Positions 12,746-48,150 are shown, counted from the stretch's first letter. The stretch is 64,000 bases of DNA from an uncultured Acidobacteriota bacterium (GCA_963697745.1 CAVOPD010000009.1:20898-84897), one strand, 5' to 3'. Made by a program: numbers and translations. The notes: generated by a model not told the origin, from the sequence alone.

Positions 12746-12749
12746 TGGC

Positions 12750-13413: not shown

Positions 13414-13509
13414 GGACCGAGCTTGTTAGGCAAGGCTTACCTGTGCTTTCCTCGAATTCCGTCACTTCGTCATGGCGTAATTGCTGAGAACGATCGAGAG
13501 AAGGCACCC

Positions 13510-13865
13510 GTGCTCGCGGCAACGCGCTCATCGGTCTCCGGAGAGGGACTCGAGGCCGCCCTCGTCGTCGTCATCCTCGTCGCCCTCCTCGTCAAGACCG
13601 ACCGCCGTTCGGCGCTGCGCCACGTGCGGTCCGGCGTCGCCGTCGCCGTCACCCTCTCGGTCGCCTCGGCGCCCTGCTCACCTACGGCACGCAGCGCTGA
13701 CGTCGAGGCCCAGGAGCCGTCGGCGGCACGGCCTCGATCATCGCGGTCGTCTTCGTCACCTTCATCGTCTTCTGGATGAAGTTCGGCCTCGCGCACCATC
13801 TCGGGCGAGCTCAAGGGCAAGCTCGACCGGGCCCTCGACCTGGGCCCGTTCGCGTCGTCACCGCC
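13510..13865 (+). pseudogene. FTR1/EfeU-type iron permease; 5' fragment only, frame-broken and truncated at the composition junction
   Basis: GTG at 13510. The text GEGLEAALVVVILVALLVKTDRR matches the REGLE-type motif region. It is followed by SIIAVVFVTFIVFWMK and ISGELKGKLDRALDLGP in other frames. Only about 118 codons remain before the sequence character changes. Confidence 0.6.
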
Positions 13866-13875
13866 GTTGTACGTG
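13850..13875. other. Breakpoint between two compositionally different segments; the 3'-truncated ends of two convergent genes abut here
   Basis: The + strand FTR1 text stops at about 13865. The - strand amidohydrolase text (…QIVAFPQEGMYTYNGG) stops at about 13868. GC content and amino-acid usage change abruptly across this point. Confidence 0.7.
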
Positions 13876-14339
13876 TACATCCCCTCCTGCGGAAAGGCCA
13901 CGATCTGGACGGCGACGTTGTCCTTGAGCTGATCACGCAGTTCCAGCATCACCTTCAGGCCAGTCAGTTTGGGATCATCCACATCGATGTGCGTGCGAAT
14001 GAACTGCACCCCTTTGGACACCTCCTCCTGAATACCCCTGAGCGCACGCGCCCTCGCCTCTTCAGGCGTCTGCGTCTTCTTGACGTCATGCCAGCGTGCG
14101 ATCCCTTCGAACAGCGTGCCGGTCGCGTTCAGGGCGCCTTCGCTACGGCCGGTGTAAACGTAGTCCAGGTGTAGGTGGGCATCCACGTACGGAGGCACCA
14201 CCAGGTGGCCGCGCAAATCGATTTCCTCCTCTGCCTGCGGCAGGGACGTGCCGATCTGCTTGATGACGCCCTGGTCGACGAGAATCTCACTGGCGTGATC
14301 GTGCTGTCGATAGATCCGCGCGTTGGTGAACTTCTTCAT
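13868..14339 (-). pseudogene. Cytosine-deaminase-like amidohydrolase; N-terminal about 157 codons only
   Basis: MKKFTNARIYRQ...GHLVVPPYVDAHLHLDYV (metal-binding HxH)...GVQFIRTHIDVDDP...VAVQIVAFPQEG. The downstream part of ORF 13470..14426 is unrelated GC-rich read-through. Confidence 0.7.
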
Positions 14340-28616: not shown

Positions 28617-29472
28617 GTGCCTGACGGACTCGCGGCTACCTCCAACCTCGCCGTCCAAATCTTCGCGATCTCGAGCATGGCCTCGATCGGATTGCGTTAT
28701 CGCGTCGAAGAGATCATCAATCCCCTGCGCGACGTCTGGGCGGTCGTGCTCGCGCTCGTGGCAAACTTCGTAGCGGTCCCGATACTTGCCTTCGGGATTC
28801 TCGGAATTGATCGAGCTCGACACCGTGTACGCCATCGGCCTCGTCCTCGTGGCATCGGCGGCAGGGGCCCCAATGATCATCAAATTCACGCAACTCGCTG
28901 GCGGAGATGTCGCCTTCAGTGCGGGAGTGTTGGTGCTGCTGATTGTCGTATCGATCGGCTATATGCCATTCGTGGTGCCGCTGTTCGCACCAGGTTCCGA
29001 GATCACGGCGTCGGCGATCGCCGCGCCACTCGTCCTGACGATGCTGCTGCCGCTCGGTGCCGGTTTGATGGTGAAGCGTCTGGCGTCGGCGGCAGGTCGC
29101 ATCTTGCCCATTCTTGACGTGGTCACGAACGCCTCGCTCCTGACGCTCGTGGTGCTGACGTTTGCGCTGAATCTTTCGACCCTCCTCAACGTCGTCGGAA
29201 CCGGCGCCATCGCCGCGTCGCTACTGTTTATCGCTGGCGCTTTTGGCATCGGGTGGATGTTCGGCGGAAGCTTCGGTGAGCATCTGCGCGACGAGATGGC
29301 GCTCGCCACCGCGCAGCGCAACTTCGCAGCCGCGCTTGTCGTGGCCACCCAGGCCTTCGACGCGCCAGGCGTGGTGGTCATGGCGGTCGTCGTGTCGATC
29401 GTGACCATGGCTGTCCTGTTTCCGGCTGCGAAACTGCTCAACAGGCGTGCGCAGCCGGCAGTCCGCCGTTGC
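28617..29472 (+). pseudogene. Bile acid:Na+ symporter (BASS/SBF-like) family transporter, frame-broken
   Basis: The protein is hydrophobic throughout: LAVQIFAISSMASIGL, VWAVVLALVANFVAVPILAFGI, then (frame 28786..) YAIGLVLVASAAGAPMIIKFTQLAGGDVAFSAGVLVLL...ALATAQRNFAAALVVA. Start (GTG at 28617) and stop are tentative. Confidence 0.6.
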
Positions 29473-29525
29473 GTGATCAGCAGAACGGTCGCGTTACGCC
29501 AATGGAATGATCAGGAGATCCGCAC

Positions 29526-31877
29526 ATGCCGTCCGATATTCCGCGTCACGTGCTTCCCATTCCTGACCGGCCGTACGCCGGACCGACGATGTACGACGCA
29601 CGGGATCCGGATAGCGAATTACGAACCGATCGAGCCGGTGCGCCCACCGGCTGGCGCGCCCAACATCCTGCTCGTCCTGCTTGACGATGCCGGCTTTGGC
29701 TCGAACAGCGCATTCGGCGGCCCGTGCCGGACGCCGACGTTCGATCGCCTGGCGGCCGACGGCCTGCGCTACCTCCGGTTCCACACGACCGCGATGTGCT
29801 CGCCGACGCGCCAGGCGCTGCTCACCGGACGGAACCATCACTCGGTGGGGATGGGCGCGGTCGCTGACATGGCGTCAGCCGCACCGGGCTACACGTCGCG
29901 CCGGCCGAATACCGCGGCGACGACCGCAGAGACGTTGCGCTTGAACGGCTACTCGACGGCGCAGTTCGGGAAGTGCCACGAGGTGCCGAGCTGGGAGTGG
30001 AGCCGATGGGGCCGTTCGACCGGTGGCCGACCGGCAGCGGATTCGAGTACTTCTATGGCTTCATTGGCGGCGAAACGAGCCAGTTCTATCCGAGTCTGAC
30101 CGAGGGCACGACGCCGGTGACGCCGGATCGGACGCCGGAGGAGGGCTATCACCTCACGGAGGACCTCGCCGAGAAGGCGCGGCAGATGGCTGGGCAGCAA
30201 CGTGCGCTAATGCCGGACAAGCCGTTCTTTCTCTACTTCGCGCCTGGCGCGACCCATGCCCCCATTCACGCGCCGGCGCACGTGGCGCGATCGCTACCGC
30301 GGAGAGTTCGACAGGGCTGGGACACGCTGCGCGAGGAGATCTTCGCTCGCCAGAAACAGCTCGGCATCGTCCCGCCTGACTGCGAGCTCACCGCCCGGCC
30401 GGATGGCATCCCCGCGTGGAGCGACGTTGCGGACGACATGAAGCCGGTGCTCACGCGCCAGATGGAGCTCTACGCCGCGTTCCTGGAGCACACGGACTAC
30501 TGCATCGGTCAGGTGATCGACGCGGTCGAGGAGCTTGGGGCGCTCGACGACACGTTGACTCTACGTCATCACCGGCGACAACGGCGCGTCGGGCGAGGGT
30601 ACGCTCAACGGGACGTGGAACGAGTCATTGACCATGACCGGCATGGACCACGTCGAAACCCCGAGTTCCTGCGCGAGCGCCTGGAGTCGTTTGGCACGCC
30701 CGACTCGTACCCGCAGTACTCGCTCGGCTGGGGCCACGCGATGAACACGCCGTACCAGTGGACGAAGCGGATTGGCGTCGCACTGGGGCGGGACGCGGAA
30801 CGGCTTGATCGTTCATTGGCCTCGTGGCATCAAGGCCCGCGGCGAACTGCGCCACCAGTTCCATCACGTCATCGACGTCGCACCCACGTTCCTCGAGGTC
30901 GCCGGACTGCCGCAGCCGTACAGGTCGACGGCGTCACGCAGCAGCCGATCGAAGGCGTGAGCATGGTGTAGAGCTTCGACAGCCGGACGCGCCGGACCGG
31001 CATGAGACGCAATACTTCGAAATCCTCGGCAATCGCGGCATCTACCACAAGGGATGGACGGCGGTCGCCGCGCACAATCCGCCTGGCGCAGGATGGCCCG
31101 CCGCGGACTCCACGATGCCGTCTGGGAGCTCTACGACACCCAAGACCGACTGGTCGCAGGCGCGCGACCTCGCCAGCGAACAGCCGGAGAAGCTGCGCGA
31201 GCTCCAGCGCCTGTTCCTCATCGAAGCTGCCAGGCACAACGTGCTGCCGCTCGAGGATCGCGTCGCCGAGCTAGCCAACCCAGATACGGCCGGCGACCAG
31301 TGCTCGCGCGGACTGCGGCGCCAGCGGCTGTATCGGGGGATCGGCGGCTCAACGCCTTCTCCGTCATCAGCATCAAGAACAAGTCCCATCGAGTGACGGC
31401 GGAGGTCATGTCCCCGCGACTGGCGGTGACGGCGTCATCGTCGCGCAAGGAGGGTTCCCCGGAGGTTGGTCGATTTACGTCGAAGGAGGGCGCCCGAAGT
31501 ACTGCTACAACTTCTACGGGGTCGATCTCTTCCACGTCGAAGGCACCGAGCGGTTGCCACCGGCACGCACCGCGTTCGCATGGATTTCAAGTACGACGGC
31601 GGTGGTCCGGCGAAAGGCGGGAACCGTGACGCTCTTCATCGACGACCGGCGCGTCGGCGAGGGAAGGGTTGAACGGACGCAGCCGCTTCCGTTCGCCAGC
31701 GATGAGCCGCTCGAGATCGGCACCGACACCGGCTCGCCGGTGACGCGTGACTATTCGGTTCGCCGGTTCACCGGCTCGGTGCACTGGGTCGACATCGAGA
31801 TCCCCGAGGGCGCGCGTGACAGCGACCACGAGATTTCGGACGAACAGCGGATGGAAGCCGCAATCGTCAAGGAGTGA
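29526..31877 (+). pseudogene. Cys-type arylsulfatase (large AtsA-like, about 780 aa) with about 8 frame changes
   Basis: AGGAG precedes ATG at 29526. The text includes GAPNILLVLLDDAGFGSNSAFGGPCRTPTFDRLAADGLRYLRFHTTAMCSPTRQALLTGRNHH, which carries the CxPxR formylglycine motif. It continues with QFGKCHEVP, FEYFYGFIGGE, PFFLYFAPGATHAP, LGWGHAMNTPYQWTK, ASHWGGTRNGLIVHWP and HHVIDVAPTFLEVAGLPQP. The C-terminal domain is HRVRMDFKYDGGGPAKGGTVTLFIDDRRVGEG. Confidence 0.85.
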
Positions 31878-33737: not shown

Positions 33738-35404
33738 TCAGCGTTCTTGTCGCTGTCCGCGGACACCGCGTTGCCACTCTTCTGCGAGGGCGCGTGCCTC
33801 CTCGATCGATTGGCCGAGGACGTTGCGGGCGGGAACGATGTGCACCACACCGCCGATGTCGAGTTTGCCGGACCTGCGAAGCTGTGCGGCGACGGGTTCG
33901 CTGACACCCGCCAGGTACAATCGCCCGCCTGCCTCTGCCAGCGAGTCCGCATAGTCGGCGAGCACATCGATCAACGTGGCGCCCACGCTGGAACGGCCAC
34001 GCAGCCTGAGCACCACCGCAGGCCTCTCAGCACCGTCAGCGCTGGGGAGCGAGTCTGCCAGCGTGCGCGCGCCCGCGAAGAACAGGCTGCCGTGGACATC
34101 GAGGACGAGAATCGCCTCGCTTTCCAGCCGCGGCGGCGGAGATTGTTCAGCGACCCTCCCATTGCCGACCGGCACCAGTGCCCGAACACGGACGTCGGAT
34201 GCCGAAGCGGAGAGATACAGGATGACCGTCAACAGGACACCGGTTCCCACAGCCATCGGAATCGAAAGGAACAACGTCGCCGCGAAGGTCACGACAATGG
34301 CCAGGCGCGCGGATCCGCCGGTGTTCCAGATGGAGCGGGCCTCGCGAAAATCCAGAGCGCTGATGCCCGACATGATCATCAGCGCTGCCAGTACCGTCAG
34401 CGGAACCTGACTTACCAGGCGGCGAGCCGTCAGGACGATGACCAGCATCCATACGCCGCCCAGGATGCCGGCCCATCGAGTCCGTGCGCCGACCGCCACG
34501 TTCAACGCCGTTTGCCCGACGGAACCGCCGGCTGGAATGCCCGACAACAGGCCGCTGGCGATATTCGCGGCTCCTTGGGCGATAAGATCCCGGGACGGAT
34601 TCACGGGACGGTCGTCGGGGTTCTCCACACTCTGGCTGACACCCGCACCTTGCACTCCGACGACCACGGCAATGGCAAACGCGGCAGTAATCAGCTGGGG
34701 TGTGAGGAGCGCGAGATTGGGCAATGCGGGTATCGGGATTCCGCTGGGAATCGGGCTCACGTCTCGCGACCCGCTGAACGTCCTTCCAATGGAACAGCTG
34801 CGACCACCACCGTGGGCACGACGACTGCGACGGCTGAGGAGAGATTTCCAACGACGGTGCGTCCCAGTCCAATCGCCAGGCCCAAAGCGACCATTCCGGT
34901 GAGAATCGTCGGCACGCTGAAATCGGACGCGCGCGTCAGCAGGTCGAAAAATTGCGCTACTTCATTGCTGCCCTGCGCGTTGACGCCGACAAACGGCGCC
35001 GACTGGTCCAGAATGAGCAACACCGCCACGCCTCCCAGAAATCCCGTCATGACGGCATGGGAGATGAATCGGACGAGACGGCCGGCTCGAAGCAGGCCAA
35101 AGAGCGCAAGCCACACACCAATCAGCGTAACCAGCAGGAACAACGCACCGTCTCGATCGCCTGCGGGATACCCGGCAATGACCTGGCCGGCCGCCAGCGC
35201 TGAGGCAGTGGTTGTGGCGATCTGCATCAGCTGCGCACTGACCAGCGCGCTGCCGGCAATTGGTGCGGCGATGCTGGTGCAGAGCCCGTACACGGGATTT
35301 ACGCCCGCCAGAGTCGCTGACGCGAGCCCGTCAGGGACGCTGACAACGGCGTTCACAAATGCCGGCGACCGTGTCCTTGCGGACACTACTGCTCGTCGCG
35401 TCAT
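33738..35404 (-). pseudogene. SulP-family anion permease with a STAS domain, paralogue of the previous gene; one frame change near 34760
   Basis: ORFs 34757..35824(-) (true start ATG at 35404, MTRRAVVS...VVSVPDGLASATLAGVNPVYGL) and 33738..34760(-) (…DLIAQGAANIASGLLSGIPAGGSVGQT…VLDVHGSLFFAGARTLADSLP…LRLRGRSSVGATLIDVLADYADSLAEAGGRLYLAGV) abut each other. Confidence 0.8.
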
Positions 35405-35638
35405 GCGATCTCGGTCTGCCGGCCGGCTGGACCCTCCGGGTGTTCGGTTCACCCACCTGGCGATTATGCGGGACGGCGTGGGGTCAAGACGCAAAGGCGG
35501 CCGAATTCTGGTTGGACCGAGGCGATGGGTTCGGCATGATATTTGGGTTTGAGCGCAGTCCAACAACGCGCCATCAAGCGAGGACGCGGAGTTTTTTTGA
35601 TGCGCTGGCTGCGGACTCCACCGCAGAGAGGTGACCAG

Positions 35639-35809
35639 ATGAAGCCAAAGGTCGGGATTATTGGAGACGGCAACGTCGGCAGTGCGTTGCGGCGCGGCCT
35701 CGAGCGGGCGAGTTACGAAGTTCGCGCCGTCGGCAAAGGCCAGGTGACAGAGACAGGCCGCTGTGCTGACGTCGTCATGCTCGCGGGACTGAAGCTGGTG
35801 CGCCGCTAA
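35639..35809 (+). pseudogene. Remnant of a Rossmann-fold NAD(P)-binding oxidoreductase (NADPH-dependent F420-reductase-like N-terminus), about 50 codons
   Basis: MKPKVGIIGDGNVGSALRRGLERASYEVRAVGK...ADVVMLA is followed by unrelated residues and a stop. The full-length family is about 210-230 aa. Confidence 0.45.
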
Positions 35810-35836
35810 CGTTGGCTGCCGCAAGGGGGTATTGCT

Positions 35837-37448
35837 GTGACCAACACTCCGCAGGACTACGATTTCGTGATCGTCGGCGGCGGCTCCGCGGGCGCGATCG
35901 TCACTGCACGACTCGCCGAGAATCCCGACAACAGGGTTCTTGTCCTCGAAGCGGGCCCAGAAAACACGAGCTACTGGTCTCGCGTGCCGCTCGGATTTGC
36001 CAAGATCCTGTTTAACCCCAAGTTCATGTGGCTCGATTGGAAGACGCAGCCCGACGAATCACTCGGCGGGACTGTGTACGGCCTGCCGCATGGCAAGCTC
36101 CTGGGCGGGTCCAGCGCGATTAACGGATTGGTGCACGTCCGCGGCAATCCCGGTGACTACGACGATTGGGAGAAGGCGGGAGCGACTGGCTGGAATTACT
36201 CGTCGCTTCTGCCATACTTCAAGAAGTCGGAGCACGACTCGCGCGGTGACACCGAGTTCCACGGCGGCAGCGGCCCGTTCAAAGTCGAACCGGCGCGGTG
36301 GAAGAACCCTCTCGCAGATGCGTTCATCGACACCGCCTGCCGCGTACTCGGAGTGCCACGGAACGACGATTTCAACCGCAACAACATCGAGGGCGCCGGG
36401 TACCTGGGATCTGGCGACCTGGAACGGGCGCCGCACCTCGACCGACGTCGCGTACCTGAAGCCGGCGCGCAAGAAGACGAACGTCGCCGTCACCACCGAG
36501 GCCACCGTCACGCGCATCGACTTCGACGGTCGGCGAGCAACGGGAGTGCGCTATCGCAGGGACGGGCAGGAGTACCGGATTTCTGCCCGCCGTGACGTGG
36601 TCCTCGCCGCCGGCGCGCTGCACACCCCGCAGTTGCTGCAGGTCAGCGGCGTGGGGCCTGGTGCTCTGCTGCAGCGTCTCGGCATCCCCGTCGTCCACGA
36701 CCTGCCCGGCGTGGGCGAGAATCTCATGGACCATGTTCAGTACGGCGCGAAGTTCAAGACGAGCAGCCCCCATACTTTCAACAGGAAAGTCGGCTCGTGG
36801 TTCACGCAGGCGATCGAGGGCGTCAAGTACTACCTGCTGCCGCGCAATGGTCCGTTAAATATCGGGGCGTCGCTGGCGGGAGCATTCTTCCGCACTGCCC
36901 CGGCGCTGTCCGAGCCAAACATCCAACTCCACTTCCTCCCGTTCATGCCGGGCGACAAAGGCTGGGACCTGGCGGACTTCTCGGGCTTCCGGCTGGGGAT
37001 GTACCAAGGGCGGCCTCATTCGCGCGGGTACGCGCGGATTACGTCGCCGAGCGTCGACGATCAGCCCGACTTGGTCTTCAACCATCTCTCTCACGAGGAG
37101 GATGTCATCGTGGCGATGGCCGGTATGCGAGCGGCGATGAAGATCGGGGCGGCGATGCCCTCCGACCTCGAAATCGAGCAAATCGCGCCGAAGCAGAACC
37201 CATCGGACGACGAGCTGCTGCAGTACATCAAGAAGACGTCGGATACGGCGTTTCACTTCGCGGGCACCGCCCGAATGGGCACTGACGACATGGCGGCCGT
37301 CGACCCGACGACCATGCGAGTTCGCGGGATAGAGGGGCTGCGCGTAGTCGACGCCTCGGTCCTGCCGGGGGAGGTCACTGGGAACATCCATCCGGCGGTC
37401 ATCGGCGTTGCCGAGCGAGCGTCCGACCTGATCAAGGCCTCTCGCTGA
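35837..37448 (+). pseudogene. GMC-family (choline-dehydrogenase-like) FAD oxidoreductase with one frame change near 36400-36420
   Basis: DYDFVIVGGGSAGAIVTARLAE...GKLLGGSSAINGLVHVRG in frame 35837 is followed by NGRRTSTDVAYLKPA...VVLAAGALHTPQLLQVSGVGP...FHFAGTARMG...GLRVVDASVLP in frame 35940..37448. Confidence 0.85.
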
Positions 37449-38002
37449 GTAAGACTCGGCATTCAGGTACCGGTCGCGAGACGCCACGGAGGCCGGGTCT
37501 GGCACGCGCTCACGATCCACGATCCCTGACCGGTGAACAGTAGGTACGCATCGCCTGCGAACTATTGAGGCAACCAGACGGCCTGCAAGGTGCCGCCGCG
37601 ATGGCTGCGGTCTCTTTTGGGCCTGTTCGAGCATTTGGGCTCACGGTCACAAGCTATCGAGAAGGCATTGCCGCGGCGTTCAGGGACTGAAGGGCGCCGC
37701 ATTCCCAAGCACCCGCTGCGAGCAATCTGTCACTCTATGACCGAAATAATCGTCCTTCGCTCCAAGGCGAATCACTCATCGGGCTGTGGTCTCCGGCGCG
37801 CTCATCGGTGGCACTGAAATTGTGCTCCGGTTCCGCGTTTAGCGCACGCCACGACGACCGCTGTTATGCTGGCGCCTGCGACAACGGGTTCCGGTCGCCA
37901 GGGCCAGACCAGGATGTGACACGCGCCGCCAGGTGAACCGATTCGGTGATTCGACGTCCTCCTGTATGAGGTTTCTGAACGCTGCAGCAGACGAAACACG
38001 AC

Positions 38003-40297
38003 ATGCGCGGCACATCTCTCGAGAGCATGGCATCTGAACGTCGCGTCGCCGGCGCGGCCGGGTCCCCGACGCGCGCGCTGGTTCTTGCGACGATCTCATT
38101 CGCAGTGTCGTTCGCCGCATGGGGCCTCGTCGGCGGACTGGCCTCCGTTTTCACTGCCCTCTACCGACTAAACGCGTCTGAGACCGCATTCCTGGTGGCA
38201 GTGCCAGTGCTGCTCGGCTCGTTGGCGCGGTTGCCGATGGGCATGCTGACCGATCGCTTTGGCGGACGCGTGGTCTTCACTTCGCTGCTTGCCTTCTCCT
38301 CGCTCGCCGCGTTCATCGTGCCGCTGACCGGCAGCTACGGCGCACTCCTCATCGCGGCATTTCTCATCGGCATGCCGGGATCGTCCTTCGCGGTCGGAGC
38401 CGCGTTCGTCTCTCGGTGGACCCCGGCGGCTCGCCAAGGGACGGCCCTCGGCGTCTATGGGCTCGGGACGATGGGCCAGTCGCTGGCCGTCTTCGTCGGC
38501 CCGCTGGTGGCCGCTCGCTTGGGATGGGAGGTCGTATTTCAGGGTACAGGCGCAATTCTCCTTGTTTGGGCTGCCGCCTACGTCCTGATCGCCCGGAATC
38601 CTCCACCGGCCGGTCGTCCGGCCACGGTGGCTGCGATGATGGCGATCCTGCGTGGAGCGCCGACCGCATGGCTGCTCGGCGCTTTTTACTTTCTGACATT
38701 CGGCGGCTTCGTCGCATTCTCGGTCTATCTGCCGACGCTGTTGCGTGCTGAGTTCGGTCTCGCCCCCGCCGACGCCGGACTCCGAGCGGCAGGATTTGTC
38801 GTACTCGCCACGCTGATGCGGCCGGTCGGGGGGTGGCTGGCGGACCGGATCGGCGGTGCCCAGGTCTTGTCGTGGGTCTTCGGCGGCGTCGCGCTGTTTT
38901 CACTGCTCCTGACGTGGCCGTCCATGGTGCCGTTCACGGTCGGGGCACTCGGGTGCGCGATGCTGATGGGATTGGGCAACGGCGCCGTCTTCAAGCTGGT
39001 GCCGGAGCACTTCCCGAGAGATACGGGCACGGTGACTGGCCTTGTCGGCGCCCTCGGCGGCCTGGGCGGGTTCTTCCCGCCACTTTTGCTGGGTGTCTTC
39101 ACCGATCGTCTGGGCGCTCTCTGGCCTGGGTTCCTCCTGCTGTCGGCGACGGCACTGGTGCTGCGCGTCGCCAACCAGCGCGTCTTCCATCCCGGCGACG
39201 TTGCGTGGAAGCAGTCCCTGCCCGCGGCCGCGCGCCAGGCGCTCGAGCGCGTCAGGGCCGGCGCATGGGCAGCACTCGTCACCGCCACGCTCGCGGCGGC
39301 AATCGTCGTTGGGTCGCGCAAGCTGCAGCACTTCGACGCGGCTCTGATCGGCTACACGTTCGCGACGCTCTTCGCCGCGTTCGGGATCAGTTATCGCTAT
39401 GCGATGTGGCTGCAACGTCCGCCGACACGCATGTACTGGAGGCGCGGGTGGCAGGCCTTCTTCTCACGGCGCGCGCTGGCCGGCAACACGGTCCGTCTGG
39501 GAGGTCGCGCGCTCCTGGAGTTTGCCGCCAACGCGTACATCTTCCGGCGCGGCCGACTCCGCGGCCTCGCGCACTGGATGATCATGTGGGGCTGCGTGCT
39601 CGCCGCGGCGATCACCTTTCCGCTGGTCTGGGGCTGGATTCACTTCGAGACCGTCCCAGGCGACCTGCACCTGTATCGCACGTTCGTGTTCGGCATGCCG
39701 ATGCAGGACTTCCCCGTGGAGTCCGCCTTGGCGTTCGTCATCTTTCACGGGCTCGTGTGGTGCTCGTTTCTCGTCATTGCCGGCGTGATGCTCGCCTTTC
39801 GCCGCCGCATGATCGATCACGGGGCCGTCGCGCTGCAGCAGTTCGGGCAGGACATTCTTCCATTGCTGCTGCTCTTCGCGATCAGTGTCACCGGCCTGAT
39901 GTTGACAGCGAGTTATACGTGGATGCGGGGCTATGCGTATGACTTCCTCGCGATTCTCCATGCGGCCACGGTGATCGTCACACTCCTCTGGCTGCCGTTC
40001 GGCAAGCTGTTTCACGTATTCCAACGGCCGGCGCAACTCGGTGTCGGTTTTTACAAGGACGCGGGCGCGCGCGGGGACCAGGCGGCGTGCCGGCGCTGCG
40101 GGCAACCTTATGCGTCCCAGCTGATGGTCGGCGACCTCACCATCGTCGAGCGCGAACTCGGGTTTCGCTACGAGTTGCCGGGCGGCAGCCACTACCAGGA
40201 CGTCTGCCCCAAGTGTCGGCGCGCACTCTTCGGTTTGGCACAGGGGGCGTTGTGGCAGCACTACCTCAACGCCCGTGACGAACGAGAGGCAGGGTAG
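38003..40297 (+). CDS. Fusion protein: NarK-type MFS nitrate/nitrite transporter, NarI/DsrM-like cytochrome b membrane domain, and a C-terminal Cys4 ribbon
   Basis: Intact 764-aa ORF; the start may instead be ATG at 38027. Residues 1 to about 430 are 12-TM MFS text ([32 protein letters not shown]). Residues about 440-690 form additional TM helices with His-bearing motifs ([27 protein letters not shown]) and [13 protein letters not shown]. The protein ends with CRRCG-x35-CPKC. Confidence 0.8.
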
Positions 40298-40302
40298 GCG
40301 GC

Positions 40303-42576
40303 GTGGCAGAAATTCCGGTTGATCCGCTTCGCATCATCGAACGCTTCGGGCCGCACCTGTCCGCGATGACGGGCGTTCGCCTCTCGACCAGTGTTGAACC
40401 CGATCGGCTCGTGAAGACCCACTGCTGCTTTTGCGGACAGCAATGCGGCATTCAGTTGAAGGTCCGCGACAACGAAGTGATCGGCTTCGAGCCGTGGGAG
40501 GACTTCCCGTTCAATCGCGGCATGTTGTGCCCGAAGGGCGTGAAGCGCTATCTGCAGGGCTCGCATCCTGACCGGTTGCTGACGGCGCTGCAGCGGGATA
40601 CATCGGCGGCTTCGGGATTCAGTCCGCTGCCATACAGAGACGCGATCAGCCGCGTGGCCTCCGAAATCACCCGTATCCAGCAGAACCACGGCGCCGGCGC
40701 CGTCGCCGTCCTCGGCGGAGCCAGCCTGACTACCGAGAAAACCTACCTGCTCGGCAAGTTCGCGCGCGTGTGTCTCAAGACGCCCTTCATTGATTACAAC
40801 GGACGGCTATGCATGGTCAGCGCTGGCGCCGCGAACAAAAAGGCGTTCGGCATCGATCGCACGACCAGTCCGTGGTCCGACATGGTCGGTACGGATGTGA
40901 TTTGGATTGCGGGTTCCAACGTTGCCGAGTGCTCGCCCATTACGACGAACTACATCTGGCAGGCGCGCGAGCAGGGCGCGAAGATTATCATCCAGGATCC
41001 GCGCATCACGCCGGCGGCCCGGACCTGCGACTTGTACCTGCCGGTGAAGCCGGGGCGCGACGCGGCGCTGTTCGCCGGCGTGCTGCAGATCATGATCGAG
41101 CGCGACTGGGTCGACCACTCGTTCATCGAGACGCATACCGTCGGCTTCGAGCAGGTGGCTGAGTACTGCCGTGAATGGACGCTGCCGCGCACCGCCGAGG
41201 TGACCGGCGTACCGCGGCGTGCATTGATGCAGGCCGCTGAATGGTGGGGAACGGCCAAAACGAGCTTCCTCTTCCATGCCCGCGGTATCGAGCATCACTC
41301 CAACGGTGTCCAGAACTCGCTTGGCACCATCAATCTCGTGCTCGCATCGGGCCGGATCGGCAAGCCGAAGAGCGGCTACGGCACCATCGTCGGCCAGGCC
41401 AACGGCCAGGGTGGCCGTGAGCACGGGCAGAAGTGTGATCAGCTTCCAGGCTGGCGCGACATCAGCAATCCCGAGCACCGGAACTACATCGCCGGCGTGT
41501 GGGGGATCGACGAGCAGGAGTTGCCCGGTCCGGGCGTTGACGCTTACGAGTTGTTCCGCAAGATCGATCGCGGTGAGATCAAAGGGCTGCTGTCGATCTG
41601 CTTCAATCCGAAGGTCTCGCTGCCGGACAACACTTTTGTCACGCGCTGCCTCGAGAAGCTCGAGTTCTACGCCGCCATCGACTTCTTCCTGAACGACACC
41701 GCCTGGCACGCCGACGTCGTCCTGCCGGGGAGCCTGCATGAGGAAGACGAAGGCACCGTGACGCAGGTAGAAGGGCGCATCATCAAGATCAACAAGGCCG
41801 TGGACTGTCCGGGCGACGCGCGCGAGGATTGGCGCATCATCCAGGACATCGCGCAGGCGCTCGGCCGCCCGCATGGGTTCACCTTCACCGAGCCGCGTGA
41901 GATCTTCGAGGAATTGCGCGTCGCCAGCAAAGGCGGGGTCGCGGACTACTCGGGAGTAACTTACGAGAAGATCACGCAGCACTTCGGGGTCTTCTGGCCG
42001 TGCTACAGCCAGGACCCCCGGACGGGTGCGGCGCTCGATGACCATCCAGGCACACCGCGGCTGTTCGAGCAGGGCAGCTACAATCCCGTCGCCAAAGGGA
42101 GTGGACCGTTCTACTTCCCTGACGGCCGCGCGCGGTTCAATGTCGCCGACTATCGCCCGCCGGTGGACGATGCGAGCGAGGAATATCCGATTTACCTGAC
42201 AACGGGCCGGGTCGTTAGTCAGTTCTTGTCCGGTACCCAGACGCGCCGCATCGGACCGCTGGTCAAGCAGTACCCGGAGCCGCGGATTGAGATGCATCCG
42301 CGGCTGGCGGCGAAGCTCGGGATTGCGGAGGGCGACTGGACGACCGCCGAAACTCGCCGCGGGACCATCACCCTGAAGGCACAGGTGGTCACCACGATCC
42401 GCCCGGACACGATCTTCATCCCGTACCACTGGGCCGGCCGGAAGAGTGCGAATCAGTTGACCGTTGCCGCACAGGATCCGATCAGCAAGATCCCGCAGTA
42501 CAAGGTGTGCGGCTGCCGCGTCCGAAAGGCGGACGCACCACCGGATTACGAGACGGTGCTCGAGCCGCAGCAATAG
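40303..42576 (+). CDS. Molybdopterin (Mo-bisPGD) oxidoreductase catalytic subunit, assimilatory-nitrate-reductase-like (NarB/NasA-type)
   Basis: Intact 757-aa ORF starting 5 nt after the transporter stop. The N-terminal 4Fe-4S motif is [10 protein letters not shown]...NRGMLCPKG. The body text is typical: [60 protein letters not shown]. There is no twin-arginine leader and no in-frame TGA. Confidence 0.85.
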
Positions 42577-42593
42577 ACGGGCAGGACGTTGAC

Positions 42594-43271
42594 ATGGCCA
42601 AGCCGGACTACCTGCACTTTTTCATCGATCCGAATCGCTGCATCGGCTGTCAGTCATGTCTGCAGGCGTGCTCGGAGTGCGACACGCATCGTGGCGAGTC
42701 GATGATTCATCTCGAATACGTGAACCGATCGGAAAGTGTGCAGACCGTGCCGGTCGTCTGCATGCACTGCGAGCAGCCCACCTGCGCGGAAGTCTGTCCG
42801 GCGGATGCGATCAAGCGCACCGGCGACGGCGTGGTGCAATCAGCCAGGAAGCCGCGTTGCATTGCCTGCGGCAACTGTGTCGTTGCCTGCCCGTTCGGTG
42901 TGCCCGAACTCTACGAAGACCGCAAGATCATGATGAAGTGCGACATGTGCTACGACCGGACGAGCGTCGGCAGGAAGCCGATGTGCGCCACGGTGTGCCC
43001 GAGCCAGGCGCTCTTCTTCGGCACGCGCGAGCAAATCGAACAGTTACGTCCGCGCTCCACGCCGGTCAACACGTTCCAGTTCGGCCACCAGACGATTACC
43101 ACGCAGGTCTACGTGATGGTGCCGCGCAACCTGGCAATCACTGCCCCGCACGTCGATGTCACTGCCGCCATGGATGAGCGGCCCCGGAACCGTGCCGTGT
43201 CGCTCAAGGTGGTGAGCACGCCCGACGGTGTGTCAGACGAGAGTGATCCTTATGCCGAGGTCGAGGTTTAG
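42594..43271 (+). CDS. Four-cluster 4Fe-4S ferredoxin-type electron-transfer subunit (DmsB/FdhB/HybA-like)
   Basis: [52 protein letters not shown] and CDMCYDR...CATVCP give four Cys groups. There is no signal peptide. Confidence 0.85.
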
Positions 43272-43273
43272 CG

Positions 43274-43921
43274 ATGGCAGATGCCCGATCCGATCCCCGC
43301 CGACCAGTCGATCCAGCGATCAACTCGCCAGGCCGTGAAGGCCTAACCGGCACGGCAACCGCCAACCTCTATGCACCTGGCTTCGAGCGCGAGCAGATCA
43401 CAATCGCACCTGACTTCACGCCGGCCGGTGTCCAGCCAGCCTGGCGGCAGGATTTTCCGATCGACTGGCCGCAGGACCTGTACGTCGAACGCCGGGACTT
43501 CATGAAGTTCCTCGTCTTGACCAGCGCCGCGTTCACACTTGGGCAGGTGTCGATTGGCATTCAGAACTGGTATCGAAAGCGCAGCGGTCGACCGGCCATG
43601 CAGCGGATCGCGTCCGTCGACGATCTCGCGATCGGCGGGGCAGTTGTCTTCACCTATCCGAACGAGCGCGAACCCTGTCTCCTCGTGCGGCTGACGACGA
43701 GCGACTTCGTCGCTTTCAGCCAGCAGTGCACGCACCTGTCGTGTGCCGTGATTCCACGGCCGGCCGAGGGCAGCTTCTATTGTCCCTGTCACGAAGGACG
43801 ATTCGATCTGCGAACGGGCGTGCCCACCGCTGGGCCGCCGCGCCGGCCGCTGACCCGAGTCGTGCTCGACATCAGGGGACAAGACATCTACGCCGTAAGC
43901 GTCGAGGAGCGGACGACATGA
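43274..43921 (+). CDS. Membrane-anchored Rieske [2Fe-2S] protein
   Basis: Intact 215-aa ORF. The Rieske motif is CTHLSCAV-x13-CPCHEGRF. A single TM helix, FLVLTSAAFTLGQVSIGI, is preceded by ERRDFMKF (Tat-like) at residues 72-79. The start lies 2 nt after the previous stop. Confidence 0.85.
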   Translation: MADARSDPRRPVDPAINSPGREGLTGTATANLYAPGFEREQITIAPDFTPAGVQPAWRQDFPIDWPQDLYVERRDFMKFLVLTSAAFTLGQVSIGIQNWYRKRSGRPAMQRIASVDDLAIGGAVVFTYPNEREPCLLVRLTTSDFVAFSQQCTHLSCAVIPRPAEGSFYCPCHEGRFDLRTGVPTAGPPRRPLTRVVLDIRGQDIYAVSVEERTT

Positions 43922-44166
43922 GTCCCTCGCCGAAGCGGCCAGTCAGCCGCGACCAGCGGACCACGCTCATTTCCGGGATGCTGGTTTTCGTCCTGATCGT
44001 TGTGATCCTCCAACTCTGGCTGCTGACCGCGACCATGAACGCGTGGCTCGGAGGTGATGACGCCGTGGTGTGGCCGGCGGCGGCCGTCAGCGCCGGCGGC
44101 CTGGGGTTGAATCTCGGATTGCTGGTTTTCCTGGGCAGGATCGAACGTACGCGGATCGGGGAGTAG
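43918..44166 (+). CDS. 82-aa two-TM membrane protein, translationally coupled to the Rieske gene
   Basis: An ATGA start/stop overlap lies at 43918-43921. The sequence is MSPSPKRPVSRDQRTTLISGMLVFVLIVVILQLWLL...VVWPAAAVSAGGLGLNLGLLVFLG. No family recognised. Confidence 0.5.
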   Translation: MSPSPKRPVSRDQRTTLISGMLVFVLIVVILQLWLLTATMNAWLGGDDAVVWPAAAVSAGGLGLNLGLLVFLGRIERTRIGE

Positions 44167-44284: not shown

Positions 44285-46230
44285 TTACGGCAGTCGCGCG
44301 ACTTCCGCCCGTGCTTCCTTGAGAACTGGAATCCCCGGATCGGCATCCTTCCACAGCGCCAGGAGATCGTTGTAAGCGCTTTGCGCCTTCACGGTAGCGC
44401 CCGCGAGCACGAGAGCTCGCGCCAGTTGCAGACGCGCCATCGCGTCCATGGGATCGACGAGAACCATGCTGCGATGATCGAGGATGCGCTGGAACTCGCC
44501 GACAGCTTCGGCGGGTTGACGGGCGGCGAGGTACGCCAGTCCGCGAACATAGATGGGATACAGGCCGCCGAAACGTCCGATGAAGCCGACACGCCCAAGC
44601 GCGAGATCGTAGCGCGAGGCGGTCTGCAGCGCTTGAATCGCCGCGGCCGCATCAGGAGTGGGCGTGTTCAATGAGAACAGGGCCCGCAACGTCGGCAGAT
44701 ACATGAATTGCACCGACGTATCCTCAGGGAACTCCCGCGCGAGACCGTCGGCGAGGGCTCGCGATTGCGGCAGATCACCTGCGAGGGCAAGTGCGAACGC
44801 CGCGGCATAGTCCACTTCGCGACCGCCCCGTCCGAGCTCGAGCGCCCTGATGGCGCTGTGCCTCGCGGCGGCCGCATTCCCATAAAACGCTTCCCACACG
44901 GCGGTGCCCGCTTCGAACAAGCCGGCCCGTTCGCGTCGACCGGACTTCTGCGCGATCTGGACGGCGCCCTCGGCCATCCGTCTCGCGTCCTGCAACTGAC
45001 CCGAGCGAGCCAGGGCGAGCGCCTCTATATTAGAGATGCTGTCTTCCGTGGTGGGACTCTTCCGGGCCGCTGTCGCCGTCCGCCTGAGTTCGTTCTCGTT
45101 ACCCGTCAAGAAGGCAACGAAATACTGGGTCTGCAGCAACGAGGCGGATTCCAGCTTGCGCTCCGCCGCGAGTCGGACCGTCAGCAAGGAGTCATCAAGG
45201 CGATTCAGCAGGAGCTGATTGAATGCCCTGTTGCCATACGCCGGGTTCGAGTCGGGATCCAGCGCGATGGCCTTCTCGGTCTCGGCGATCGCCAACTCAT
45301 GTTGGCCGGTGCTCATCAGGGCGAGACCCGCACTCAACGTGTGTGGCGTCGCATCGCGCGGATAGCTCTCGGCCCACGTTTCCAACGTTCGTCGCTCTCG
45401 TTCCAGGTTCCCGGTGAAGTCGCGGTCGTACAGCGTGTCGATCCAGAAGCGCTCGGCGTCGCTGGCCCGATTGCGCAGCTGGTAGGCCTTCTGCAAGCTT
45501 TGTCGCGCGAGCGCCGACTCTCCCATGTCGCCGTAGCGGAACCCGACCTGCGCATGGGCCAGCGCAAAATCGGGATCGATAGCGACCGCACGTTGACCCA
45601 GCGCCAGGGCACGTACCAACGAGCCGGCAAGGGCCGCTTTGAATCCGGCGCTGTGGGCCTGCAGCGCTTCGAGCGACGAGGTCGTCGCTTCGAGCGGCGT
45701 CGAGTATCTCTCAATGGTGGCGAGCGATTCGCCAATTCGCGTTCGGAACCGAGTCGCCATCTGGCTGAGCGTGCTCAGAACATCTTCTTTCCGCGATGCC
45801 TGTGCCTGCTCGTCGGCGAGGATGTCCCCGGTCGCGCAGTTGGTTGCGTGCAGCCCGAGGACGTACTGACTGCCAAGCGCCGCAATCGATCCCTCCAGGA
45901 GCGCCGCGCTGCCCGTCCGAACGCACACAACCCGCGCAACGTCGGGGGTCAGTCGTGCATCCGCCGGCTGGTTCATCAATGGCAGCGTTCTTCGGATGCG
46001 TTCGTCGGAGATGAGACGCAGGAACGGCGACTGCTGAAGCTGCACCGCGAGTCCTTGTCGGAGCGTGTCGTCGAACACCGGGTCGCCCGTCGTGTTGGTG
46101 AACTCGCCGAGCACGATCGTGTCCTTGTCGGTGAGCGGCGCAGGATGGCGGTCATAGATCACGCCCGCGACGACGGCGGTGACGACGACGGCCGCCGCGC
46201 CGATCGACGAGCCACCGCGCGCGCACGACG
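44285..46230 (-). pseudogene. TM segment plus periplasmic/TPR sensor part of a Ser/Thr kinase, separated from the kinase domain by one frame change
   Basis: ORF 44285..46162(-). The same frame continues upstream of its GTG as [64 protein letters not shown] (TM helix hand-translated). A long TPR-like helical region follows. Confidence 0.7.
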
Positions 46231-47298
46231 CCCGGGCGTCGCGTGCGGCGCCACCGTGGCGCCTTGCCCGCGTCGCAGACGTTCGAGATCGGTGCGCAGG
46301 TCGGCGGCGTGTTGATATCGAAGTTCGCGCTCACTCTCGAGACACTTCGAGATGATGCGCTCCAGCTCCGGCGATTCCTCGACGCGCAGCCGGACGACCT
46401 GCGAGGGCCGCGTCCCCTTGACCATTTCGTAGAGCACCAGGCCGAAGCTCCAGATGTCGGCGCGGTGATCCACGGCCTCGCCGCGGGCCTGCTCCGGCGC
46501 CATGTAGGCGGCTGTTCCCATCACGACACCCTGCCGGGTGCCGGCCATCGTGGTCACGTCCGCCTGCGGTGTGCTTGACGCTCGCATCTTGGCGAGGCCG
46601 AAATCGAGTACTTTCGCGCGATCGCGCGCGGCGATGAAGATGTTGGCGGGTTTGATGTCGCGGTGGATGATCCCCGCACTATGCGCGGCGTCCAGCGCGT
46701 CGGCAATCTGGATGCCCACGTCGAGCAGCGTGTCGAGGCTCAGCGCACCCGCGGCGAGCCGGTCCTGCAGCGTCGTGCCCTCCAGATACTCCATGGCGAT
46801 GAACGCGCGTCCGTCCTGCTCGCCGACGTCGTAGATGGTGCAGATGTGTGGATGGTTGAGCGCCGACGCAGTCCGGGCTTCGCGCTGAAAGCGGCTCAGG
46901 GCCTCGGCATCACTCGCCAGATCTGCGGACACGAACTTGAGCGCAACGGGACGGTGAAGCCGCGAATCTTCGGCCTTGTACACGACGCCCATCCCGCCGC
47001 CGCCGAGCTTCTCGATGATGCGGTAGTGCGAGAACGTCTGACCGATCAGCGGATCGCCGCCGGCCTGACTGCCGTCGTCGCTGCGCTCTACGGCGAGCTC
47101 GCGTGCGGCGAGATCGATCGCCGGAGCGCCGAGGAACCTGTCGGCACGGTCGTGTGCGGCGAGCAGCGAACGGACGTCGTCTTCCAGCCGTTGGTCGCCG
47201 CCACACACGTTGCGAAGATAGGCGTCGCGCTCTACCGCGGGAATGTCGAGCGCGGATTGCAGCAGCTGATCGACGTGATTCCAGCGGTCATTGTCCAT
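46159..47298 (-). pseudogene. Ser/Thr protein kinase domain (Hanks-type), N-terminal part of the split kinase-TM-TPR gene
   Basis: [20 protein letters not shown]...[35 protein letters not shown]. The ORF ends in the Arg/Ser-rich text [17 protein letters not shown] exactly where the next frame shows a TM helix, implying an indel near 46190-46215. Its start overlaps the sigma-factor stop by 11 nt. Confidence 0.8.
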
Positions 47299-47887
47299 TG
47301 GCGGTCGGGCCGGCGAGCTCTCGATACAACCAGGCTTTCGCGCTTTTCCACTCGCGCATCACGGTGATCGGCGAGACGCGCAGCACTTCGGCGGTTTCCT
47401 CGACGCTCAGGCCGCCGAAGAAGCGCAGCTCGACGACTTTCGCTTTGCGCGGCGCCCGCGCCGCCAACGCGTTCAAGGCATCGTCCAGGGCCCCGAAATC
47501 ATCGGAGCGATCGACGCAGATAACAGCCTCGGCATCGAGCGAGACATGCTCGGCGTTCGCGCCCCGCTTCGCATTGCGCCGCCGCGCCTGGTCGACGAGG
47601 ATGCGGCGCATGGCCTGCGCCGCTGCCGCCATGAAATGCGCCCGGTTCTGCCAGTGCATGCGTTTGTAGTCGACCAGCCGCATGTAGGCCTCATTGACCA
47701 GCGCCGTCGTCTGCAGGCTGTGGCCGGCGCGCTCGCGCCTCATGTAGTGGTGCGCCAGACGACGGAGCTCGTCGTGAACGATCGGCATCAGGAGGGCGAG
47801 CGCACGCTGGTCCCCGTCGCTCCACGCTCGGAGAAGCGAGCTGACGTCGCCTGGAACCGGTTCATCCGTGCTTACGCCGCGATGCAT
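47288..47887 (-). CDS. ECF sigma factor of the TIGR02999 / kinase-associated type
   Basis: From the internal ATG at 47887: [73 protein letters not shown]...[26 protein letters not shown]...[41 protein letters not shown]. Confidence 0.85.
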
Positions 47888-48150
47888 CGTGCCGCGTCGG
47901 ATTATATATGCGGCCTTCTCCTTTTCTTCGACTGATAGCGCCGTCGCGGCTTTTGCGCCTATCTGAGTAGAGAGCCCGACTGACGTCACGGACAGCGTCG
48001 ATGCTCGGGCGGATCTGGCCGCTGCCCGTGCCGACCGGCTGACCGGCGTGCGTGACCGGAGACGGTCGGCGAAAAGAGCCGGGAGCGCGAAGTGTCCGCG
48101 CCCGATTGAAGCGCATCAAATCGGAATTGTCGGTTTACAGGAGGTCCAAC

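Follow-up and report, generated by a model that had tools for sequence, protein, structure and literature searches.

A candidate membrane-bound, quinol-linked nitrate reductase operon in an uncultured Acidobacteriota bacterium and its relatives in other phyla

Among the described systems closest to the locus reported here, NarGHI pairs a catalytic subunit of 1,200 amino acids (aa), NarG, whose active site faces the cytoplasm, with the four-cluster iron-sulfur (FeS) subunit NarH and the membrane anchor NarI, and it is linked to the transporter NarK and runs a redox loop. Nap enzymes carry a twin-arginine translocation (Tat) signal and use the c-type proteins NapB/NapC. Nas enzymes (NasC, NasA, and NarB) are partnered by NAD(P)H reductase, ferredoxin, or flavodoxin, and some Nas systems include a Rieske-type protein, Paracoccus NasG being an example. 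In haloarchaeal pNar, one gene cluster encodes the nitrate reductase together with a cytochrome b and a Rieske protein, and AioAB is encoded as a signal-less molybdenum-bis(pyranopterin guanine dinucleotide) (Mo-bisPGD) subunit together with a Tat-targeted Rieske protein. Surveys score narG/napA as dissimilatory and nasA/narB as assimilatory. Here, we analyzed a 64,000-nucleotide stretch of DNA (the window) from an uncultured Acidobacteriota bacterium (GCA_963697745.1, CAVOPD010000009.1:20898-84897), in which five consecutive genes, g1 to g5, encode a NarK-type transporter fused to a NarI-like cytochrome b, a Nas-like molybdoenzyme, a ferredoxin subunit, a Rieske protein, and a DUF6755 protein. 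On balance, and with moderate confidence, we consider that this operon encodes a membrane-bound, quinol-linked nitrate reductase complex with its active site facing the cytoplasm.

Compared to the described systems, the complex would work most like NarGHI with NarK, with a catalytic subunit borrowed from the Nas/Nap/Fdh clade and a Rieske protein of the bc/Aio type. It shares with NarGHI the predicted cytoplasm-facing active site, the four-cluster FeS subunit, the linked NarK, the expected redox loop, and a NarI-type anchor whose last helix carries a His-x17-His pair. It differs in that the catalytic subunit, at 757 aa, belongs to the Nas/Nap/Fdh clade, the FeS subunit is DmsB/FdnH-like rather than NarH, no NarJ-like gene is present in the operon, and the anchor has six transmembrane (TM) helices, a Cys4 tail, and three conserved histidines, with Rieske and DUF6755 proteins in addition. 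The catalytic subunit resembles NasC/NasA/NarB in its best-scoring hidden Markov model (HMM), its FS0 Cys4 motif, its Cys-Met Mo-ligand motif, its GRE arginine, and its missing signal peptide; however, it is only 29% identical to Azospirillum NasA and scores under the NasC cut-off, its partners are membrane redox proteins, and its genes do not cluster with nitrite reductase genes. Unlike Nap, there is no RR leader, and no CxxCH was seen in the translations of the five operon proteins. The gene content recalls haloarchaeal pNar, but pNar places NarG/NarH on the outer face and uses a bc-type cytochrome b, whereas here the cytochrome b is NarI-type and the catalytic subunit is Nas-like and predicted to be cytoplasmic. 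AioAB, of which AioB ranks among the closest matches to g4, is a periplasmic oxidation system in which AioA belongs to another clade with a [3Fe-4S] cluster, and it has no ferredoxin subunit, cytochrome b, or transporter. In Tmc/DsrMKJOP/Hme and in TcuB, a NarI/DsrM-family cytochrome b likewise joins an outer redox partner to a cytoplasmic FeS partner; in Tmc/DsrMKJOP/Hme, however, the outer partner is a multihaem cytochrome c instead of a Rieske protein, and the cytoplasmic partner is a CCG-domain (HdrD-like) protein instead of a molybdoenzyme with a ferredoxin subunit. The complex is also no member of the Fdh or bc complexes. Thus, with the defining features of each system tested, the combination fits none of Nar, Nap, Nas, haloarchaeal pNar, and Aio, as had been claimed, for all of these but Aio, in an earlier prediction made from the window's sequence (the original prediction). 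That prediction had further stated that the system is not known to be a characterized one, and our full-text literature searches, with subscription journals outside their scope, found no published description of the five-gene system. The Nap plus Rieske/cytochrome b cluster of Caldithrix abyssi (PMC5317091) and the ForCE formate dehydrogenase of Bacillus subtilis (PMC8808070) are different systems.

The coordinates of the five genes and of their features are collected in Table 1. The gaps between g1/g2, g2/g3, and g3/g4 are 5, 17, and 2 nucleotides, respectively, and an ATGA overlap between g4 and g5 at 43918-43921 was read directly in the DNA; purine-rich stretches resembling ribosome-binding sites precede g2, g3, g4, and g5. 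The longest possible open reading frame (ORF) of g3 opens at GTG 42507, but homologues in other loci begin at the residue encoded by ATG 42594, which we therefore take as the start. The original prediction had taken the spacing of these five co-directional genes to suggest one operon. ORF calls and the direct reading agree on the layout, and the arrangement is more than chance, as the same gene order recurs in 65/65 related loci that have all five parts, drawn from many phyla. Profile searches, alignments, and a structure model back each of the five domain assignments made at that time, namely, a NarK-type major facilitator superfamily (MFS) transporter fused to a NarI-like cytochrome b with a Cys4 element (Pfam MFS_1, hhalign, the model, and the conserved cysteines), a Nas/NarB-like catalytic subunit without a twin-arginine leader (top HMM, active-site motifs, and no RR), a four-cluster ferredoxin subunit, a membrane-anchored Rieske protein, and an 82-aa protein with two TM segments.

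Table 1. Coordinates of the five genes and of their sequence features in the window
Feature	Position	Strand	Remarks
g1	38003-40297	+	764 aa
g1, NarK/NNP-type MFS nitrate/nitrite transporter domain, aa 1-394	38003..39184	+	12 TM helices; MFS_1
g1, NarI-like cytochrome b domain (putative), aa 395-764	39185..40297	+	Six TM helices, outer-face beta sheet, cytoplasmic Cys4 knuckle (predicted)
g1, conserved histidines	H524 (39572), H653 (39959), H671 (40013)	+	Family alignment
g1, motif PFGKxFH	39995-40030	+	Family alignment
g1, Cys4: C696, C699, C735, C738	40088-40216	+	Family alignment
g2, Mo-bisPGD catalytic subunit	40303..42576	+	757 aa; GTG start; no signal peptide; three Pfam domains
g2, FS0 cysteines C41, C44, C48, C76	40420-40539	+	
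g2, probable Mo ligand C170 in RLCMVSAG	40804-40827	+	
g2, GREHG arginine	within 41386-41427	+	
g3, DmsB/FdnH/PsrB-type ferredoxin subunit	42594..43271	+	225 aa; four [4Fe-4S] motifs; no signal peptide, no TM helix
g4, membrane-anchored Rieske [2Fe-2S] protein	43274..43921	+	215 aa
g4, conserved segment QPxWRxDFPIDWPxDxYV	43433-43486	+	
g4, twin-arginine motif RRDFMKF	43490-43510	+	
g4, TM anchor	43508-43570	+	
g4, box I CTHLSC	43727-43744	+	
g4, box II CPCHEG	43781-43798	+	
g5, DUF6755 small membrane protein	43918..44166	+	82 aa; two hydrophobic segments (TM helices by inspection)
g5, motif LQLWLLTATMNAxLGGD	44008-44058	+	Family consensus; outer end of first helix

To place the catalytic subunit, we compared g2 with HMM libraries and with one representative each of NasA, the Halomonas nitrate reductase, NapA, and FdhF. 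Its Pfam domains are Molybdop_Fe4S4, Molybdopterin, and Molydop_binding. The best HMM was that of NasC (NF047855), with 769 bits against an equivalog cut-off of 1100, followed by Fdh-alpha (526 bits) and haloarchaeal NasA (341 bits). NapA models scored 230-240 bits against cut-offs above 900, the AioA model (arsenite_ox_L) scored 122 bits against a cut-off of 359, and the NarG model (TIGR01580) scored 44 bits against 1084. Sequence identity was 29% to Azospirillum NasA (the gene of which adjoins nirBD-cobA), 31% to the Halomonas nitrate reductase, 27% to Sinorhizobium meliloti NapA, and 29% to Escherichia coli FdhF. Because identity is nearly the same, at 27-31%, to NasA, NapA, and FdhF, g2 appears to form a separate clade, as judged by pairwise identity to these four references together with the HMM scores. 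A placement inside a well-studied clade whose members already show this five-gene context with a published function would have told against the original prediction, and it was not seen. g2 homologues that are 68-95% identical were found across metagenome and genome loci of different phyla. In the Joint Genome Institute (JGI) annotation, such homologues are labeled 'assimilatory nitrate reductase catalytic subunit', and a single cluster at 90% identity has 1,470 members.

The active-site columns are more telling than overall identity. The Mo-ligand motif reads RLCMVSAG in g2, RLCMASS in NasA, RHCMASA in NapA, and RVUHGPS in FdhF, so that g2 has Cys-Met where FdhF has selenocysteine-His; the GRE arginine of g2 is common to Nas and Nap, while the essential R333 of FdhF is replaced by Val. 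The first 40 residues contain no RR, and thus no Tat leader. Since the active-site columns match Nas/Nap and the FdhF residues are absent, g2 is most readily read as a nitrate-reductase-type enzyme and not as a formate dehydrogenase.

The transporter half of g1 points the same way. Residues 31-358 match Pfam MFS_1 (E 7.5e-41), the N-terminal domain aligns with E. coli NarK through TM12, and the NarK family model TIGR00886 matches over its full length with 206 bits, which is under its curated cut-off of 311.7. The nitrate-site residues of the E. coli NarK crystal structures, namely, R89, R305, Y263, F49, F147, F267, and N175, are retained in g1 except that N175 is replaced by Thr; separate NarK genes at other loci retain Asn at this position.

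These data bear on the possibility that the complex acts on another substrate or in another direction, such as the reduction of chlorate, selenate, tellurite, or a sulfite-related oxyanion, or the oxidation of formate or nitrite with electrons passing outward to the Rieske protein. The separate clade of g2, 27-31% identical to every reference, would be compatible with it, as would the SLAC1/TDT channel that about half of the loci carry instead of NarK, since the SLAC1/TDT family includes tellurite and sulfite transporters. However, NarK and SLAC1 genes alternate beside g2 orthologues that are 68-86% identical to that of the window, which favors a single substrate common to them all; the residues with which NarK binds nitrate are intact (the exception of N175 aside), the formate dehydrogenase catalytic residues are absent from g2, and the neighborhood is linked to nitrogen oxides. 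Moreover, electrons from nitrite could not be accepted by the low-potential Rieske center suggested by the CPCHEGRF sequence of g4, given the known potentials. We therefore regard this alternative as highly improbable. The original prediction had stated that the substrate cannot be fixed from sequence; it is indeed still inferred here, but the g2 active site, the NarK residues, and the neighboring genes for nitrogen-oxide stress narrow it down.

The C-terminal half of g1 (aa 395-764) had no above-threshold Pfam match and no meaningful sequence match in the PDB. When it was used as the query against a protein library clustered at 50% identity, 1,267 representatives were matched at E<=1e-3 and 851 at E<=1e-10, and the domain thus appears to found a family of its own, the members of which are mostly stand-alone proteins of 340-390 aa. 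In an alignment of 34 family sequences, H524, H653, H671, PFGKxFH, C696, C699, C735, and C738 are invariant or nearly so. An AlphaFold2 model of the domain (predicted local distance difference test score, 93.9) shows six TM helices, with a beta sheet inserted between TM3 and TM4 and a knuckle domain at the C terminus. Five lines of evidence connect this domain with NarI. NCBIfam searches with g1 gave weak TcuB and TmcC matches; Nitrate_red_gam (PF02665) matched 21/34 family members at E<=0.1, with a best E of 1.1e-5; hhalign aligned the family with E. coli NarI at a probability of 94.4% and an E of 9.4e-8; H653 and H671 fall on NarI H187 and H205 in helix V, with a spacing of 18 residues in both; and Foldseek matched the model to NarI chains with a probability of 0.94-0.99 and a target-normalized TM-score of 0.46-0.49, yet with an E of 0.25-0.65 and a root mean square deviation of about 11 Å. 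Mycobacterium smegmatis EtfD was also matched by Foldseek, within the same probability range and likewise with a poor E-value. None of the five lines is strong alone, but they agree, and weakly to moderately they support a NarI-like cytochrome b. More broadly, the membrane domain belongs to the NarI/DsrM/TmcC/TcuB/EtfD superfamily. Families of bc-type cytochrome b matched none of the five proteins, and the NarI-like domain is the only cytochrome b candidate among them.

g3 matches Pfam Fer4_11 (E 4.2e-20) and has four complete Cys groups, at aa 16-26, 56-68, 89-99, and 116-135. Its top NCBIfam models are DmsB, FDH3-beta, and FdnH, none of which reaches its cut-off, and it also resembles HybA; the NarH model (TIGR01660) scored 32 bits against 524.

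The Rieske protein, g4, matched a single Pfam family, Rieske, with 34.9 bits against a cut-off of 20.3, and this match, the TM anchor, and boxes I and II together identify it as a membrane-anchored Rieske protein. Its NCBIfam matches were AioB/PetC-type models, with AioB the best (46 bits against 95.65), and NirD/NasG-type models were not matched; the Thermus bc Rieske protein and AioB were among its best PDB sequence matches (E about 2e-9). Judged by these matches, g4 is a respiratory Rieske protein of the bc/Aio type. In an alignment of g4 from 64 loci, RRD(F/L)xKF(L/M)VLTS stands directly before the sole TM helix in every row shown, and both disulfide cysteines are likewise present in every row shown. 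The number of positive charges after the helix is not conserved and ranges from five to about none. The RR motif is most likely a twin-arginine signal anchor, such that the conserved N-terminal segment would stay cytoplasmic, and the invariant Tat motif together with the two disulfide cysteines indicates that the cluster domain probably lies across the membrane from g2. Box II reads CPCHEGRF and lacks the Ser and Tyr to which structure-potential work attributes the higher potential of ubiquinol-type Rieske proteins; this suggests a menaquinol-type, low-potential center.

A Tat-targeted Rieske protein also raises the question of whether g2 and g3 might fold in the cytoplasm, bind g4, and hitch-hike on its signal, as AioA does on AioB, giving a periplasmic enzyme that is anchored on the outer face by the Rieske helix and the cytochrome b. 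The invariant Tat motif and bc/Aio-type boxes of g4, the position of AioB as best NCBIfam model and among the best PDB matches, and the precedent of AioAB co-export are in line with this arrangement. In contrast, an anion transporter is fused or adjacent in 62/66 loci and would be superfluous for a periplasmic enzyme, the cytoplasm-facing Cys4 domain and the inner-haem His would be left without a partner, and g2 is not Aio-like, with an arsenite_ox_L score far below that of NasC. Furthermore, the 35-residue segment before the RR of g4 looks more like a cytoplasmic docking element than a leader. A periplasmic enzyme thus seems very unlikely. Conversely, a transporter in or beside nearly every operon and the missing export signals of g2 and g3 together argue for a cytoplasmic catalytic site.

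The last gene, g5, matches DUF6755 (PF20540) with 113.6 bits against a cut-off of 27 (E 5e-33), and a DUF6755 gene follows the Rieske gene in 65/65 whole-module loci. The DUF6755 family has a conserved Met-containing motif on the outer side, and g1 is missing one helix II His (39566-39600); as speculation, DUF6755 might supply a ligand that substitutes for the missing cytochrome b haem ligand.

To determine how widely the module occurs, we searched one genome per species with a 10-sequence alignment, which returned at least 594 confirmed matches. Eighty loci were kept from among the matches listed, and context was counted over 82 loci in all. Hosts are found in Acidobacteriota (Vicinamibacterales, Blastocatellia, Thermoanaerobaculia, and Chloracidobacterium), Myxococcota, Planctomycetota, Chloroflexota, Gemmatimonadota, Verrucomicrobiota, Abditibacteriales, and Rubricoccaceae, and loci with all five parts, among which Deinococcus is listed too, span at least eight phyla. 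Using tblastn with six window parts, we found the order cytochrome b–Mo–FeS–Rieske–DUF6755 in every one of the 65 loci with all five parts. Fifteen of the remaining 17 loci are cut by a contig end, one (L019) has no detectable g3-g5, and in one (L082) the small gene that follows the Rieske gene has diverged beyond detection. The last of these is on plasmid p_2 of Deinococcus sp. D7000, where the same operon has a g2 that is 56% identical to that of the window. The records of this strain and of Herpetosiphon sp. NSE202 (Chloroflexota, L052) are not marked as metagenome-assembled genomes (MAGs) and presumably derive from cultures. In L082, the stand-alone cytochrome b gene HLB42_19780 (7889-9001) is annotated 'MFS transporter' in GenBank although it has no MFS domain, a label that it probably inherited from the MFS-fused proteins. 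The L082 operon lies between two NarK/NasA genes.

The transporter was the variable part. In a census of the 66 loci that retain four or more core parts, NarK was fused to the cytochrome b in 13, a separate NarK gene directly followed DUF6755 in 16, and a SLAC1/TDT-family anion channel (PF03595) directly followed DUF6755 in 29; a transporter was nearby in 4, none was found in 3, and 1 locus was truncated at its 5' end. Altogether, an anion transporter is present in or near the module in 62/66 loci. SLAC1/TDT channels stand in NarK's place among loci L016-L079 (for example, L048, 12768-13847), and this substitution, seen at 29 loci, hints that nitrate or nitrite may be transported by bacterial SLAC1/TDT proteins. 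The fusion is confined to L001-L009 and L012-L015, the window's closest relatives, which are labeled Vicinamibacterales/Vicinamibacteria or Acidobacteriota apart from one oddly labeled MAG. Thus, although the window does have the five-gene NarK-fusion architecture put forward in the original prediction, the fusion is not what defines the system: what is conserved is a stand-alone cytochrome b with the four other genes and an adjacent anion transporter. Further MFS–cytochrome b fusions at 40-52% identity are present in the library (P0124, P0172, and P0199). Three other library entries were rejected as topology evidence or as fusions: P0206 (an apparent cytochrome b–Mo subunit fusion) and P0225 (an apparent other N terminus) are frame-shifted translations, and P0255 (another apparent cytochrome b–Mo fusion) looks like a read-through, with the next gene keeping its own Met.

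Clustering of the flanking ORFs provided further clues to function. RIC/YtfE-type di-iron proteins occur at 14 loci, NnrS-DUF1858 at 8, Crp/Fnr regulators at 7, and Rrf2 regulators at 6, and hemerythrins and USP proteins also recur beside the module. Comparative genomics of NsrR, NnrR, and DNR has placed these families in regulons that respond to nitric oxide (NO) or nitrite. In L052, a gene with DUF1858 and two DUF2249 domains (7117-7893) lies immediately 5' of the cytochrome b gene, and DUF1858 is fused to NnrS at other loci. NirB or CobA genes were found near the module in only 1-2/82 loci (NirB, NirD, and CobA at L001, and a weak NirB match at L074), and no NirB, NirD, or CobA gene was found within the window. 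L001, an 83%-identical relative on a 2.7-Mb contig, has NirB/D-like, fragmented second NasA-like, and CobA (TP_methylase) genes 6-10 kb upstream of the operon (1-4800).

This neighborhood is pertinent to the view that the enzyme is a purely assimilatory Nas enzyme, which draws its electrons from the quinol pool or some other donor in the membrane and makes nitrite for ammonium synthesis only. The NasC model as top HMM of g2, the JGI naming of its homologues, its cytoplasmic type, the gene cluster of L001, and the aerobic heterotrophic habit of many hosts all fit such a role. However, nitrite reductase and siroheme genes so rarely stand beside the module, the L001 nirBD genes are already accompanied by their own separate NasA-like gene, and the recurring neighbors are nitrosative-stress genes and oxygen/NO-regulator genes. 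Moreover, transmembrane haem and Rieske wiring would be costly where soluble donors suffice, and soluble donors serve every Nas system known to us. A purely assimilatory enzyme is accordingly unlikely in our estimate, though it deserves to be kept in mind. The role is most likely dissimilatory, in hypoxic respiration or redox balancing that yields nitrite, and by analogy with mycobacterial NarGHI the nitrite could also supply assimilation.

Our proposal of a quinol-linked nitrate reductase starts from the domain identities, the Nas/Nap-type active-site residues, the NarK residues, synteny, transporter linkage, the Tat motif, and the neighborhood, and we infer from these which substrate is used, which way electrons flow, which haems are bound, how the subunits are oriented in the membrane, and whether the Rieske protein is placed in line with the haems or on a side path. 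Nitrate would enter, and nitrite probably leave, through the NarK domain or, elsewhere, through a separate NarK or a SLAC1-family channel. The NarI-like cytochrome b and the Tat-exported Rieske domain would together form the site of (mena)quinol oxidation on the outer (P) face, with DUF6755 as a small structural subunit. Electrons would then cross the membrane through one or more haems b, with H524 and H671 holding the inner haem and H653 the outer haem, and the Cys4 knuckle would probably dock the soluble subunits on the cytoplasmic side. From there, the electrons would pass through the four [4Fe-4S] clusters of g3 and through FS0 to the Mo-bisPGD of g2, where nitrate would be reduced to nitrite, to be exported by NarK or the SLAC1-like channel. 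Protons would be released outside and consumed inside, in a redox loop as in NarGHI, and for this reason the enzyme would conserve energy. The sidedness follows from the fusion: the C terminus of NarK is cytoplasmic in NarK structures, and with six more TM helices after the MFS domain, Cys4, H524, and H671 should be cytoplasmic. In the model, the arginine-rich loops of g1 lie on the same side as H524/H671, which would leave H653 and the beta sheet on the outer side.

The place of the Rieske protein in this path is less clear. It could be the first to accept electrons at a Qo-like quinol site, either in line with the haem path or branching off it; it could admit electrons from periplasmic donors, in the manner of TmcA of the Tmc complex; or it could relay electrons to the outer haem. 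The original prediction had proposed that a cytochrome b and a Rieske protein form an entry module feeding the enzyme. Both parts are present, but a simple linear chain is at odds with the predicted location of the g4 cluster opposite g2.

Several observations count against this proposal as a whole. An outer Rieske cluster and an inner catalytic site cannot exchange electrons directly, and the operon encodes no outer-face electron acceptor or donor. The g1 domain of the window scored only 14.3 bits on PF02665, short of the cut-off of 22.9, and the Foldseek E-values are poor. In the counterpart of NarI helix II (H56 and H66), H524 is the sole conserved His of the 34-sequence alignment, and the position ten residues on is occupied by Ala, Gly, or Phe; the family therefore keeps 3/4 of the NarI haem-ligand histidines, and two-haem wiring would be tentative. 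The nirBD/nasA/cobA cluster of L001 and the many host lineages that we take to be aerobes would fit an assimilatory role. A sigma-70 promoter scan upstream of g1 found 0 sites, an FNR/CRP-box regular-expression search had essentially no matches in 77 upstream regions, and an Rfam scan upstream of g1 gave nothing at E<=1, the molybdenum cofactor riboswitch included. Finally, every functional step is predicted from sequence, synteny, and a monomer model.

A more far-reaching idea, which we put forward tentatively and consider somewhat doubtful, is that the complex represents a fourth architectural class beside Nar, Nap, and Nas. In such a class, electrons would enter through an outer bc-type Rieske protein (at a Qo-like site or from periplasmic carriers) and pass inward through NarI-type haems to a Nas-like enzyme docked by the transporter, electrogenically, and abundant soil groups would depend on the complex as their main dissimilatory path from nitrate to nitrite. 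The groups meant are Vicinamibacterales and other Acidobacteriota, Gemmatimonadota, Planctomycetota, Chloroflexota, and Myxococcota, whose genes are now scored as 'assimilatory nasA'. If this were true and quinol oxidation were branched, electrons could be split between nitrate and a periplasmic acceptor.

The flanks of the operon in the window were also inspected. The DNA 5' of g1 is poorly conserved in an upstream alignment, save for short blocks common to L002 and L003. At 37800-37960, the blocks shared with these loci include GTTTAG...CTGTTATGCTGGCGC and AATGTGACACGCGCCGC..AGGTGAACC, and they are possible promoter or operator elements of some type. Terminator-like sites upstream of g1 numbered 9 against 4.3 expected, none of them convincingly positioned. 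Directly downstream of the operon, on the opposite strand, a TPR protein (44285-46162, as identified by TPR matches) is followed by an ORF that we read from its translation as a Ser/Thr protein kinase (46159-47298, minus strand; 4-nucleotide overlap with the TPR ORF) and by one read in the same manner as an ECF-type sigma factor (47288-47989, minus strand; 11-nucleotide overlap with the kinase ORF). A sigma-70 family gene is found at the matching relative position in L001.

On the other side of the operon, two overlapping ORFs (35837-36595 and 35940-37448) together represent a split GMC-type oxidoreductase, and a transporter gene, SulP-like by translation (33738-35824, minus strand), is split at 34757-34760. 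The region at 28786-30099 looks frame-disrupted as well, and SBF and Sulfatase domains are joined in one frame-disrupted-looking ORF near the operon. Because the long-read MAG loci L002, L008, L016, and L041 show similar splits inside operon genes, these are probably assembly errors and not pseudogenes. The first 14 kb of the window (1-14000) have a G+C content of about 73%, compared to about 63% in the other 50 kb, and the change near 14 kb is abrupt; few ORFs there have Pfam matches, one being a subtilase (5567-7258), and this part may have been acquired as an island or result from a chimeric join.

At present, public annotation separates and mislabels the parts of this system, with 'assimilatory nitrate reductase' at JGI and 'MFS transporter' for the stand-alone cytochrome b in GenBank, while several hundred species, from phyla that are common in soils and sediments, carry the module. 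If it is quinol-linked and energy conserving, the nitrate-to-nitrite potential of soils would be under-counted and assigned to the wrong process. The complex would join known modules in a new way, linking a Nas-type molybdoenzyme to a NarI-type haem conduit and a bc-type Rieske protein, and the NarK fusion points to direct hand-over of the substrate from transporter to enzyme. The system may thus be an unrecognized route of nitrate reduction that annotation pipelines have filed as assimilation.

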